This document shows positions 47,160 through 50,209 of a DNA stretch of 64,000 nt, one piece after another (the stretch's first letter is position 1; each line of letters begins with the position of its first letter). Source of the DNA: a bacterium (lineage in GTDB: Bacteria > UBA8248); the NCBI GenBank assembly GCA_965213625.1, contig CBDBZU010000004.1, forward strand, positions 544,001 through 608,000, in the 5' to 3' direction. The translations under genes and the position numbers were made by a program. A model generated the notes under the pieces. That model was given only the letters and a program-made list of their open reading frames with translations. It did no database searches and was not told where the DNA came from.

Positions 47160-48458
47160 ATGACAGCGACACTTGAACGCTTCTTCGGACTGGCGCAGCG
47201 CGGCACCACCGTGCGGACGGAAGTTATGGCAGGCGTGACGACGTTCCTGACGATGGCCTACATCGCCTTCGTGAACCCGCAGATCCTCTCCAGCGCGGGC
47301 ATGCCGTTCGACGCGGTGTTCGTCGCCACCTGCCTCTCGGCTGCGTTCGCCACGCTGATAATGGGTCTTTACGCCAACTACCCGATCGCCCTGGCGCCGG
47401 GCATGGGGCTCAACGCGTTCTTCGCCTTCAGCGTCGTGCTCGGTCTCGGCCACAAGTGGGAGGTCGCGCTTGGCGCGGTCTTCATTTCCGGCTTGTTGTT
47501 CCTGGCGATCAGCATACTGCCGGTGCGGCGCTGGATCGTCGAGGCGATACCGCAGGGACTGAAGCTCGCCATTGCGGCCGGGATCGGACTGTTCCTGGGC
47601 ATCATCGCGCTCAAGAACGCCGGCATCATCCAGGGCAGCAAGGCGACGCTTGTCACCGTAGGCCATCTGACGACGCCCGGGCCGCTGCTGTGCCTGCTCG
47701 GCTTCTGCCTCATCGTGGCGCTCGCCGCGCGCAAGGTGCCGGGCGCAGCACTCATCGGGATGCTGGCCGTCGCTGCCGCCGGCCTGATTTTCGGCGTTTC
47801 CGAATGGAAGGGCATCGCCTCGCTGCCACCCGACCCGACGCCGACGCTCCTCGCCCTGGACATCGCCGGCGCGCTTCAGGTGAGCATGCTCGCCGTGATT
47901 CTCACGTTCCTGCTCGTCGACCTGTTCGACACGACGGGCACGCTCATCGGCGTGGCGCACCAGGCGAACCTCCTCGATGAGGAAGGACGGCTCCCGCGCA
48001 TGCAGCGCGCACTGATCGCCGATTCGGCGGGAACGGTGGGAGGCGCCCTGCTCGGCACCTCGCCCGTCACGAGCTACATCGAGAGCGCCGCCGGGGCCGG
48101 CGCGGGCGGTCGCACGGGCCTGAGCGCAGTCGTCGTGGCCGTCCTGTTCCTCGCCTGCCTGTTCTTCGCTCCGCTCGCAGGCTCGATACCGCCCTACGCG
48201 ACGGCGGCGGCCATCCTATACGTGGCGTGCCTGATGGCGCGCCCGCTCATGGACCTGGACTGGGGCGACGTGACCGAATCGGCAGCCGCGATCATGACCG
48301 TCATCGCCATACCGCTGACGTTCTCCATCGCCGACGGCATCGGCCTGGGCGTCATCACCTACGTGCTGATCAAACTGATGGCGGGACGCGGAAGCGAATG
48401 CTCGCCGACGCTGTACGGGGTAGCGCTTCTGTTCGCCGTGAAGTTCGCGTGGCTGTGA
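47160..48458 (+). CDS. NCS2/AzgA-type purine permease
   Basis: AGVTTFLTMAYI..VNP, APGMGLNAFF, FDTTGT, SYIESAAG...GGRTG. Confidence 0.93.
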   Translation: MTATLERFFGLAQRGTTVRTEVMAGVTTFLTMAYIAFVNPQILSSAGMPFDAVFVATCLSAAFATLIMGLYANYPIALAPGMGLNAFFAFSVVLGLGHKWEVALGAVFISGLLFLAISILPVRRWIVEAIPQGLKLAIAAGIGLFLGIIALKNAGIIQGSKATLVTVGHLTTPGPLLCLLGFCLIVALAARKVPGAALIGMLAVAAAGLIFGVSEWKGIASLPPDPTPTLLALDIAGALQVSMLAVILTFLLVDLFDTTGTLIGVAHQANLLDEEGRLPRMQRALIADSAGTVGGALLGTSPVTSYIESAAGAGAGGRTGLSAVVVAVLFLACLFFAPLAGSIPPYATAAAILYVACLMARPLMDLDWGDVTESAAAIMTVIAIPLTFSIADGIGLGVITYVLIKLMAGRGSECSPTLYGVALLFAVKFAWL

Positions 48459-48505
48459 GGTAAGAGGACGCGCGAGATGGAATAACGGCAATAGCTACAT
48501 CTTCC

Positions 48506-48588
48506 GTAGGGACAGGCCCCCGTGCCTGTCCTGACAAAGGGTAAGGTAGTCTGCTCCAATACGGGCGGGCACAGGGGCCCTCCCCTAC
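48506..48588. repeat. REP doublet (REPIN-like)
   Basis: Same family as 46828-46914, GTAG...CTAC bounded. Confidence 0.8.
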
Positions 48589-48852
48589 GAATTCGGATCT
48601 AAACGCGAAATGCCCGGAGTCGATAAGGCGCAAAATCCTGTCCGGGGACCGGCGTGTCCGCCCTGTCCCAAAGTTGTCCGCATTTCGTCTACGTCGGCAT
48701 GAGGGCGGCGCAATAAAGTCCGATGGATTGTAGGGGTCGCATAAATGCGACCCGCAAGCCACGAACCGGTCGGGCCGATGGGGTGGACGCCCCCTTCCGG
48801 CAGTTTAGAATGTGGCGAGGCAACGTCACACACCGCCCGGAAGGAGGCATCC

Positions 48853-49533
48853 ATGGAAGGAGTCTACATCATCGGCATCGACTTGGCGAAAAACAGTTTT
48901 CAACTCCACGGGGCGCGCGCGGACGGTTCGGTAGCGTTCCGCAAGAAGCTCGGTCGGGCGGGTCTGCTGAACTTCCTGGCCAAACAGCCGCGCTGCGTGG
49001 TGGCGATGGAGGCGTGCGCGGGGGCGCACCGCTGGGGCCGTGAGATTGCGAAGCTCGGCCACGAGGTTCGGCTCGCGCCGCCGGCCTACGTGAAGCCGTA
49101 CGTGAAGCGCCACAAGAACGACGCGGCGGACGCGGAGGCGCGGCGTCTGATGCGTATCCCGGGGGTGGGTCCGGTTACGGCGTCTGCGATCCGTGCCTTC
49201 GCGCCGCCGATGGAGAACTTCCGGCGGGGCCGGGACTTCTCGGCCTGGCTGGGACTGGTGCCCCGGCAACACTCGACGGGGGGCAAGCCCCGCCTGGGCC
49301 GGGTATCGAAGATGGGCCAGCGCGACGTGAGGCGGCTGTTGGTCACGGGCGCGATGTCGGTGATTCGCCAGGCGCTCCGGCGCGGCGCGCCGCCGGGTTC
49401 GTGGCTGGCCCGGATGCTGGCGCGCAAGCCGAGGATGCTCGTCGCGGTGGCGCTGGCCAACAAAATGGCGCGCATCGCGTGGGCGCTGATGCGGAACAAG
49501 GACGACTACAGGGAACCGGCGCCCCTCGCCTGA
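48853..49533 (+). pseudogene. IS110 transposase with in-frame internal deletion (226 aa)
   Basis: GIDLAK, MEAC, KNDAADAEA joined directly to RRLMRIPGVG; HSTGG present; central coiled-coil region missing. Confidence 0.85.
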
Positions 49534-49539
49534 GCGGCG

Positions 49540-49785
49540 GGCGCGCGGATAGAGCCGGGAGGAATGTGGGCAGGCCACAGGAGGAGTAAGGGCAAACGGT
49601 CATCGAGACGGGGTCGGGGCAACCAGTTACATGCGACGAGCGAACCATCGAGCTCGCCGGGCCGATTCGGACCCGACCCGCGCATCTCCATACGGGCCCG
49701 CGGCCGTTACGAAGCGCCGCAACGAAGAGGCCGAATGTACGACTGAGTCGAACCGCTTTGCGCCGAACCCTCCCAAAAAACCGCT
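49540..49785 (+). ncRNA. Putative bridge/seekRNA of the IS110 element (ends approximate)
   Basis: Stem GGGTCGGG/CCCGACCC encloses TACATGCG and CGGGCCG matching the target; ATGTACG matches the donor junction. Confidence 0.75.
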
Positions 49786-49936
49786 TGCATTCCAGGGGGG
49801 CGTCCATGTACGCATGTATGCGGCCCCTACAACAGCGTATTCACTCCCATTCATCAATCGCGTTTGACCCTTGCGCCCCCGCCGATTTTCCCCGATCATG
49901 GGTGGTAGTTTGTGAATCCCGAGGAGGAGTGAGAGC

Positions 49937-50209
49937 GTGTGGGGCGACAAGACGCCTGAGGGCGTGAAGGGCTCATCCGATCTCAAGCGCATCGCCACGG
50001 TGGGCGGGCAGATGGAGGCCCTTATCCTCAAAAGCAGGCTCGAGGCCGAGCGAATTCCCGTGCACCTGAGCTACGACTCGACGAGTTCGGTATACGCCTT
50101 CAGCCGCACGAACCTGGGCGCGGTGCACCTGATGGTGCCGGAAGCCTTCGCGGAAGCGGCGCTCCTCATCTACCAAGAGATCAGAAACACCGGACAATCG
50201 CCCGAATAA
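49937..50209 (+). CDS. DUF2007-like small protein
   Basis: EALILKSRLEAERIP...V.LMVPE..AEAA pattern. Confidence 0.75.
   Translation: MWGDKTPEGVKGSSDLKRIATVGGQMEALILKSRLEAERIPVHLSYDSTSSVYAFSRTNLGAVHLMVPEAFAEAALLIYQEIRNTGQSPE

Follow-up and report, generated by a model that had tools for sequence, protein, structure and literature searches.

What directs an insertion sequence (IS) to one short word of a bacterial genome, and can the instruction be read from the element itself? This question is raised by a 1035-bp IS110-family element of the IS1111 group at positions 48776-49810 of the window, by which we mean the whole 64,000-nt stretch of DNA analysed here (contig CBDBZU010000004.1, positions 544,001 to 608,000). 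The element lies between GGGC-CG and CG-CATGTATG in a doublet of repetitive extragenic palindromic (REP) sequences. The comparisons presented below make it very probable that this is a non-autonomous copy whose seekRNA, or bridge RNA, can be read against the target, the element's own ends and the core. From the same sequence data we infer production of the RNA, its binding by the protein and formation of a circular intermediate. Within the IS1111 group the element is an ordinary one and adds no new principle; RNA guidance, REP targeting and junction promoters have already been published. The locus is organized as follows:

48730-48753, + strand: left REP of the doublet, GTAGGGGTCGCATAAATGCGACCC, made up of GTAG and the palindrome GGGTCGCAT-AA-ATGCGACCC.
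48754-48771, + strand: spacer GCAAGCCACGAACCGGTC, 18 nt, with three occurrences in the genome, each beside an IS.
48772-48777, + strand: left target arm GGGC and left core CG, common to 5/5 copies of the element and matched 7/7 by the RNA segment CGGGCCG.
48778-48794, + strand: left end, with the terminal extension ATGGGG (48778-48783) and the subterminal inverted repeat TGGACGCCCCC (48784-48794).
48853-49533, + strand: truncated transposase gene, 226 aa, which has lost the stretch between the DEDD and C-terminal domains.
49796-49812, + strand: right end, with the subterminal inverted repeat GGGGGCGTCCA (49796-49806), the extension TGTA (49807-49810) and the core CG (49811-49812).
49813-49830, + strand: right target arm CATGTATG, common to 5/5 copies, and the rest of the right REP (CGGCCCCTAC).

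Every sequence listed in the initial annotation of this locus was found in the window where that annotation had placed it. Its claim that deletion of 48776-49810 restores a REP doublet with a CG core held as well: removal in silico gives GGGCCGCATGTATGCGGCCCCTAC, a palindrome with 9-bp arms in which GGGC is joined to CGCATGTATGCGGCCCCTAC, and exactly this form stands uninterrupted at six other places in the genome. Since CG is present on both sides of the element, its boundary can be placed only to within two bases, which is what one would expect of a recombination core. On the right the element ends in GTCCATGTA-CG, followed by CATGTATGCGGCCCCTAC, and the left ends of relatives align as flank, a YG or AG core, and then ATGGGGTGGACGCCCC.

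The element was assigned to its group by the definition in Siddiquee et al. (2024; PMC11187229) and Durrant et al. (PMC11208160), these and the other publications being cited here for the portions drawn upon. The subterminal inverted repeats are 11 bp long, within the 7-17 bp of IS1111 elements, and the terminal extensions are asymmetric (ATGGGG and TGTA); as in that group, more non-coding sequence follows the transposase gene (277 nt, 49534-49810) than precedes it (77 nt, 48776-48852). A search of the window's own genome (G000; 4.15 Mb, four contigs) with the 1035-bp query found five near-identical copies. Two are identical 1035-bp copies, namely the one in the window and C4:2342102-2343136, and three are identical, intact copies of 1380 bp (C4:2211884-2213263, C4:1822312-1823691 and C4:521680-523059). 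The shared sequence is 100% identical among all five, and the sole difference between the two forms is a 345-bp in-frame deletion on which the initial annotation was silent. It is flanked by 7-nt direct repeats GGAGGCG, has its junction at window position 49140/49141 and removes residues 97-211 (115 residues). The second short copy, which lies elsewhere in the genome, carries the same deletion, and this means that copying or conversion has multiplied the defective form.

The intact copies encode a protein of 341 aa (P0001) with matches to PF01548 (DEDD_Tnp_IS110; 47.4 bits, cut-off 29), PF02371 (Transposase_20; 81.6 bits, cut-off 21.3) and the NCBIfam model NF033542, 'IS110 family RNA-guided transposase' (316.5 bits, cut-off 140). 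Because of the deletion, the window copy scores 16.6 bits against PF01548, under the 29-bit cut-off. Both P0001 and the open reading frame (ORF) in the window contain GLVPRQHSTG, which fits the motif GL-P----S(t)G quoted for IS1111 transposases in the cited part of Siddiquee et al. (2024; PMC11187229). Judged by its predicted protein, the motif in P0001, the 11-bp subterminal repeats, and the 77-nt upstream and 277-nt downstream regions place the element in the IS1111 group. The window copy has kept both ends and the entire downstream region; a complete recombinase is impossible from its predicted gene, which makes the copy a non-autonomous one.

The downstream region is where the guide RNA would be encoded. 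Folding by minimum free energy was uninformative (for 49534-49812 and 49600-49700 the result was no better than for shuffled sequences, z = +0.8 and +0.3) and Rfam offered no family for the region, and we therefore used a comparison within the element family instead. Relatives were collected in a scan of one genome per species, which found 544; the best 80 loci were kept, with protein identities of 57-80% and mostly from Alphaproteobacteria. For 77 of these loci (three with less than 280 nt were dropped) and for three elements of this genome, the downstream regions were aligned (alignment A1), and a consensus structure was derived from 72 distinct sequences after removal of duplicates and of the misaligned loci L022, L050 and L079. 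The resulting features of the window copy are the following:

49586-49749, + strand: seekRNA/bridge RNA scaffold as aligned over 72 distinct relatives, its extent being that of the alignment and not of the RNA ends.
49611-49679, + strand: target-binding module, with helices P1 and P2 and the capping hairpin P3 (approximately 49638-49655).
49695-49732, + strand: helices P4 and P5 between the donor segments; in P4, GGCC (49695-49698) pairs with 49729-49732, and in P5, GCGGC (49700-49704) pairs with GCCGC (49716-49720).

The alignment revealed a strongly conserved scaffold broken by a few variable slots, and the four segments singled out in the initial annotation lie in or beside these slots. In the consensus structure 95.2% of the cells are paired, compared to 28-41% when the 3' partners are slid by one to three columns; 15 pairs show two-sided (compensatory) changes, and none of 500 shuffles reached the observed value on any measure. 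P1 is an 8-bp helix of GGGTCGGG (49611-49618) and CCCGACCC (49672-49679) in which 6/8 pairs have changed on both sides, P2 comprises 2 bp (CC 49623-49624 with GG 49669-49670), and in P3 the pair 58/74 of the alignment occurs as UA (29), AU (22), CG (13) and GC (3). P4 is nearly invariant, and three pairs of P5 show two-sided changes. Both target guides are unpaired between P2 and P3, and the donor guide ATGTACG is unpaired 3' of P4. The stem previously described as enclosing TACATGCG (49628-49635) and CGGGCCG (49658-49664) is P1, and its description was borne out, with the two guides unpaired and the helix supported by compensatory changes. A search of the whole genome with an nhmmer profile of the alignment found seven complete modules, all within elements, and one partial remnant; no solo guide-RNA gene was found in the genome by this profile.

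We compared the candidate guides with the flanks and ends of 80 related loci from other genomes and three elements of this genome. Of the 80 aligned rows, 66 included a right end with 8 nt or more of flank and entered the guide test; they represent 65 distinct cases, and mismatched locus pairs served as the control. In the window copy the segments concerned are:

49628-49635, + strand: right-target guide TACATGCG, which complements the top-strand CG-CATGTA and occupies the variable slot after AACCAG.
49658-49666, + strand: left-target guide CGGGC-CG, in top-strand sense, in the variable slot after P3 and followed by AT, the first two left-end bases.
49735-49741, + strand: donor guide ATGTA-CG, equal to the last five right-end bases plus the core, in the slot after P4.
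49686-49691, + strand: CUCCAU, candidate left-end guide, the complement of ATGGGG with one G-U; CCAT is 49688-49691.

The slot after AACCAG reads UUACAUGCG in the window element and forms a complementary run of 8 nt with the core and right flank. Among the relatives, an exact run of at least 6 nt with the own flank was present in 38/65 cases (8 nt in 17, 9 nt in 7), compared to 77/3912 cross pairs, and runs of at least 8 nt, as in the window, were seen in 8/3912 unrelated guide/flank pairs. The left-target guide agreed with the own 5-nt left flank and core at six or more of seven positions in 41/56 cases (27 of them 7/7) and in 4/2736 cross pairs, the 7/7 match of the window element being reached by 0/2736 unrelated pairs. 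These proteins, 57-80% identical, are accompanied by 50 distinct right-target and 43 distinct left-target guides. The donor guide equals the own right end at 7/7 positions in 59/65 cases, over 17 distinct guide sequences, and the core dinucleotide is equal in both loops in 62/65 (TG 40, CG 20, AG 2). Equality of the core in both loops is exactly what the proposed mechanism demands, and a chance match would not be expected to give such agreement. The earlier proposal of a CG-core RNA-guided system that can be read from this locus is thus supported by family-wide covariation of guides, flanks and core.

These comparisons also bear on an account in which the protein alone does the targeting, recognizing the REP hairpin and the subterminal repeats, while the matches between RNA and DNA arose by chance or are remnants of earlier insertions. 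In favour of this account, the individual matches are only 7-8 nt long, the folding energies do not exceed those of shuffles, the REP context is kept at 4/5 occupied sites, and ISPpu9 is described, in the cited part of the work on it, as transposing without need of its downstream small RNA Ssr9. This account would nevertheless have to explain how so many right- and left-target guides each track their own flank far above the cross-pair control, why the core covaries between loops and why the stems show compensatory change; moreover, the right REP arm is missing at 4/5 occupied sites, so a hairpin is not required. We consider it very improbable.

The fourth segment behaves differently from the other three. 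CCAU, set against ATGG, is nearly invariant, and positions 5 and 6 of the slot pair with the left end in 44/53 and 45/53 cases (G-U included), with some joint changes of slot and left end, for instance CGCCAU with ATGGCG. An alternative helix joins CCAUAC to GUAUGG, a conserved stretch with which the scaffold begins; this helix is 85.9% paired and shows two-sided change in three sequences, and in the window element its 5' strand is GUAAGG (49586-49591), which leaves an A-A mismatch. Given the near invariance of CCAT and this alternative helix, its guide role is the least secure of the four. Of the two donor segments that had been matched to the predicted circle junction, ATGTACG is therefore upheld and CCAT is ambiguous. 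Likewise, when the segments are placed in loops or stems, the target guides and ATGTACG are unpaired, and CCAT may pair with the upstream GUAAGG/GUAUGG. In columns 84-88 and 166-168 of the alignment, the left-target guide is followed in nearly all relatives by AU, the first two left-end bases, and the donor guide usually by A. The left junction as it stands after insertion is thus matched by two more bases, and the additional AU and A matches may be a counterpart of strand-exchange pairing, known as 'handshake' pairing in the structural work on IS621.

The mechanism that we propose for this element type is as follows. A 341-aa DEDD recombinase would be encoded together with a structured non-coding RNA of two modules downstream. 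In the target module, the unpaired UACAUGCG would pair with the top strand of CG-CATGTA and CGGGCCG with the bottom strand of GGGC-CG, so that the RNA would read the word GGGC-CG-CATGTATG. In the donor module, AUGUACG would correspond to the right end plus core and CUCCAU to the start of the left end, so that between them they would recognize CCATGTA-CG-ATGGGG, the sequence formed where the two ends abut in a circular intermediate. The circle would then be inserted into the target word by recombination at the CG core common to both, and the circle junction would assemble TTGCAT-N18-TACGAT before the recombinase gene. Having lost residues 97-211, the window copy would depend for its movement on protein supplied by the three intact copies; the presence of two identical deleted copies at different sites fits such mobilization in trans. 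The order of the predicted guides, with the top-strand complement first and an overlap on the core, fits the published IS1111 arrangement as given in the cited part of PMC11187229.

The genome itself offers a further view of the target. It had been suggested that other copies be checked for their sites: 5/5 copies occupy the 14-nt word GGGC-CG-CATGTATG. The sequence after CATGTATG varies among the five (three context types), and the same contexts are seen at empty sites. Uninterrupted, the 14-mer GGGCCGCATGTATG has nine further occurrences in the genome, all in REP contexts, so that 5/14 perfect sites are occupied; at six of the empty sites it is followed by CGGCCCCTAC, giving the full palindrome, and at three by a second palindrome, TCGGACA(T/A)ATATGTCCGAC. 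One-mismatch variants stand uninterrupted in the genome 8 times (GGG[AGT]CGCATGTA) and 21 times (GGGCCGCATATAT), and no IS copy was found in the genome at any of these 8 + 21 sites. The complete palindrome surrounds the window copy only, the other 4/5 occupied sites being without the matching right REP arm, which argues that the thing recognized is the 14-nt word and not the hairpin. The description of the RNA as programmed against a REP palindrome thus stands for the match between guide and target, and it does not stand for the target as a palindrome. In this genome the predicted target word is the left arm plus loop of one REP variant. We also considered whether CGCATGTATG is part of the element and rejected this, given the nine uninterrupted occurrences of GGGCCGCATGTATG and the presence of CATATATG at this position in close relatives.

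The pattern GTAGGGGNCGCAT-N2-4-ATGCGNCCC, a GTAG-headed palindrome, has 57 matches in the genome, and inverted doublets are present at empty sites. Being short, GTAG-headed, repeated and intergenic, the target sequences can reasonably be regarded as REPs on these sequence features. A weak match to Y1_Tnp (RAYT-like) was found at C4:1978614-1978778, with 22.3 bits alone and 27.5 bits together with neighbouring in-frame matches (cut-off 23). It sits in a 178-aa open frame approximately 0.5 kb from the empty target word at C4:1979333, and this frame may encode the enzyme responsible for spreading these REPs.

REP or IS-end matches were present in 11/12 congeneric genomes, and four of them carry the same element type, with 90-94% identity over the left end. 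In G008 (locus L122) the guide UAUAUGCG matches the flank CG-CATATATG at 8/8 positions and CGGGUCG accompanies the flank GGGT-CG. G002 has two copies with CGGGACG beside GGGA-CG (7/7 and 6/7) and a right guide, UACAUGCG, with one mismatch to CATATATG; locus L119 shows this pairing of the left-target guide CGGGACG with the flank GGGA-CG. In G004, UACAUGCG matches CATGTATG at 8/8 positions, and the left guide CGGGUCG has one mismatch, next to the core, to GGGC-CG. In these close relatives the predicted guide bases change in step with the REP variants. G011 carries eight copies of an 80%-identical element, four with the right-target guide AUGCGUGUCC and four with AUAUAUGUCC, and 5/8 are at the matching site type (GACACGCAGG for AUGCGUGUCC, GACATATATG for AUAUAUGUCC). 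Taken over the congeners, the putative guide code is followed, with exceptions. One of the eight copies in G011 (L111) abuts IS sequence on its right side.

The locus provides a clean case from nature, since target, donor, core and the two RNA modules all appear directly readable from it, and the congeners add single-base retargeting that tracks REP variants as well as one genome with two guide variants beside two site types. Such natural retargeting sets could be useful as specificity data for the engineering of IS1111-type recombinases, which are less studied than IS621, and the series of CG, TG and AG cores on one scaffold may be useful likewise.

Public sequencing runs were available as contigs only (Logan) and stem from relatives; four are RNA-library runs, and the tables of two of these, X18 and X19, are identical, so they may be one data set. 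Contigs 90-99% alike to the element cover the 3' end of the recombinase gene and the RNA scaffold, among them 192 nt over 49495-49688, 152 nt over 49551-49702 and 240 nt over 49542-49781, and every library piece that reaches 49140 continues into the undeleted form. These contigs indicate that related elements were present in the samples, and transcription, RNA ends and circles are not thereby evidenced. Three 'skip' joints in X22 were considered as excision products and rejected, as the 23-28 other letters between their sides identify them as other REP doublets. The X18/X19 contigs have C to T (U) at 49630, within the right-target guide, and the same variant is fixed in the G008 element (L122). 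This change would retarget the guide from CATGTA to CATATA, the commoner REP loop, with GGGCCGCATATATG as the predicted target.

Several observations weigh against reading the locus as an RNA-guided element programmed for its site. A scan of 48400-50200 against Rfam 15 (E up to 10) returned no bridge RNA family, and the RNA is thus without an independent model-based call; the five weak matches (microRNA, small nucleolar RNA, CRISPR repeat) are irrelevant, each lying under its gathering score. The related loci are not phylogenetically independent. At a position of P2 that is paired in most relatives, the lineage of the window element shows an A-C mismatch (CCAG with UCGG). The right-target run is 4 nt or shorter in 18/65 relatives, and the left-target identity is 5/7 or lower in 15/56. 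The CCAT segment, 4-6 nt long and nearly invariant, may be part of a helix rather than a guide. No circle junction was found among the RNA-library contigs, which come from relatives. In G011, 2/8 copies (L115 and L118) are at the site type of the other variant; both of these, among L113-L118 on C1, have an irregular core with one base missing, which suggests exchange between copies. Finally, a 45-nt left flank shared by 3/5 copies is unexplained by simple insertion of a circle.

This flank, comprising the left REP, the spacer and GGGC, is identical in both deleted copies and one intact copy (window 48730-48775, C4:2343137-2343182 and C4:1823692-1823737), and the sequences diverge immediately outside GTAG. 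The spacer GCAAGCCACGAACCGGTC was found neither in the rest of the genome nor in 20 relatives (21 genomes including G000), and other REP doublets have other spacers. Possible explanations are gene conversion, co-mobilization via the CG of the left REP, or chance (approximately 0.03 if the 14 sites are independent).

If gene conversion were responsible, the window copy could be an immobile fossil; deletion and flank would have spread by conversion and not by mobilization in trans, and the RNA gene would be a passenger still able to supply RNA to the intact copies. The 100% identity of the shared sequence would be expected under ongoing conversion, although recent transposition would lead one to expect it just as much. 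Both deleted copies and one intact copy share the flank, and the left REPs flanking many sites resemble one another closely enough for a conversion tract to end in them. Conversion would, however, need a prior insertion at each site, given that the right flanks and outer left flanks of the deleted copies differ, and ISEc11 mini-elements with intact ends are described as mobilized in trans in the cited part of PMC11187229. We regard this explanation as rather unlikely.

Alternatively, the mobile unit of the three copies could be larger, starting at the CG in the left REP (GGGGT-CG-CATAAATG) and carrying the remainder of the REP, the spacer and GGGC into a partly matching site. The spacer occurs only beside these three copies, all of which are among the five occupied of 14 sites (p ~0.03 under the same independence), and the left REP resembles the target, with 5/7 of the left guide and the CGCAT of the right guide. 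Precedents are two 2026 preprints which, in the portions cited, describe flexible 'half-match' boundaries and expanded IS110 loci, and ISPpu9, which is described as making several kinds of circle. On the other hand, the flank is absent from all relatives searched, the left REP has no donor arm whereas excision relies on donor-arm recognition in the cited part of the IS621 preprint, and an empty GTAGGGGTCGCATGTATG site followed by the b- or c-type context was not found, the three GGGTCGCATGTA sites being right-hand REPs of doublets. Gene conversion would explain the data equally well. A larger unit seems improbable. An extension of the same idea, which we hold to be doubtful to a like degree, is a transposase-less satellite with its own guide RNA gene and with the left REP hairpin and spacer as a new left end, that is, an IS that copies half REP doublets. 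If it were true, an RNA-guided IS would be creating new REP pairs around the chromosome by recombining at a site that matches in part. The deleted copies and their shared flank bear on element decay and boundary drift. A non-autonomous copy of an RNA-guided IS, able to move only with protein supplied in trans, remains the reading that we prefer.

IS621 has a CT core. It reportedly targets REP sequences (Choi et al., 2003). Its bridge RNA, like the RNA predicted here, reads both strands of target and donor in one molecule with a shared core (Durrant et al., 2024; PMC11208160; IS110 group), but it is encoded in the left end, upstream of the gene, whereas the one described here is downstream. According to the cited parts of PMC11208160, the donor bases lie in a simple internal loop in IS621 and in a multiloop in many IS1111 orthologues, the latter being the arrangement here, and the order of the strand matches is given as reversed between the IS110 and IS1111 groups in PMC11187229. 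The closest published counterparts are the IS1111 elements ISEc11, ISPa11, ISKpn4 and ISPst6 (Siddiquee et al., 2024; PMC11187229), which, as far as the cited text describes them, share with the present element a DEDD transposase of approximately 340 aa with the motif GL-P----S/TG, 11-bp subterminal repeats, a long downstream non-coding region, a junction-built promoter (predicted in our case), and a seekRNA whose top-strand complement precedes its bottom-strand complement, both overlapping in the target. Unlike those elements, the one studied here has a REP variant of this genus as its target and CG as its core, and its extensions measure 6 nt on the left and 4 nt on the right, in addition to the shared CG, compared to the 7 and 3 (or 6 and 3) quoted there. 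The cited text of PMC11187229 describes target matches only, whereas donor-end matches are seen here as well, in an element known from its sequence alone.

ISPpu9 and ISPpu10 of Pseudomonas putida are likewise IS110-family elements with several copies per genome in REPs (PMC12288879; bioRxiv 10.64898/2026.03.19.712850). In the portions of these two sources that are cited, a strong hybrid promoter arises in circles of ISPpu10, and ISPpu9, with its modular circles, provides a precedent for non-canonical units; ISPpu9 differs from the present proposal in that the downstream small RNA is not needed and no hybrid promoter is formed. ISPpu10 reportedly needs a stem-loop encoded by the target 5' of the site, in contrast to 2/5 occupied sites here (the full-length copies C4:2211884 and C4:521680), which lack a clear left REP hairpin.

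Junction promoters are documented for both the IS110 and IS1111 groups in the parts of the literature drawn upon, and two promoter-like sites were noted in the window element:

49785-49790, + strand: outward -35-like TTGCAT, which after circularization would face TACGAT (TA, core CG and AT) over 18 nt.
48784-48811, + strand: promoter-like TGGACG-N16-TAGAAT, 5' of the transposase start, with 9/12 consensus matches and recognized by consensus only.

Abutting the ends gives TTGCAT-N18-TACGAT, in agreement at the sequence level with the earlier claim that the junction would build a promoter. TTGC[AG] is present in the right ends of 62/67 distinct relatives. The spacer to the junction hexamer (last two bases, core and AT) is 17 nt in 45/67 and 14 nt in 17/67; a length of 18 nt, which exceeds that of most relatives by one, occurs only here, and the initial annotation did not mention the difference. 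The hexamer is mostly CATGAT or CACGAT in relatives, and TACGAT is nearer to the consensus. For the promoter-like site in the left end, one was found compared to a mean of 0.2 in shuffles, and it may serve resident copies.

The genome also contains a second element type, with two elements of approximately 72% protein identity and their own guides (C4 ~927588-928965 and C4:4129761-4132490). One copy is intact, and its left guide matches the flank at only 5/7 positions. The other is split by an insertion of approximately 1.3 kb, and its stop codon is followed by a poly-G run; the partial remnant of the RNA module (C4:4124880-4124989) lies 5 kb from this split copy. In the window, a long imperfect inverted repeat, CGTAGGGACAGGCCCCCGTGCCTGTCC ... 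GGGCGGGCACAGGGGCCCTCCCCTACG, was observed at 48505-48589, just 3' of a permease-like ORF (47160-48458). It seems to belong to a second class of repeats bounded by GTAG/CTAC and is the source of the spurious weak microRNA matches in the Rfam scan.

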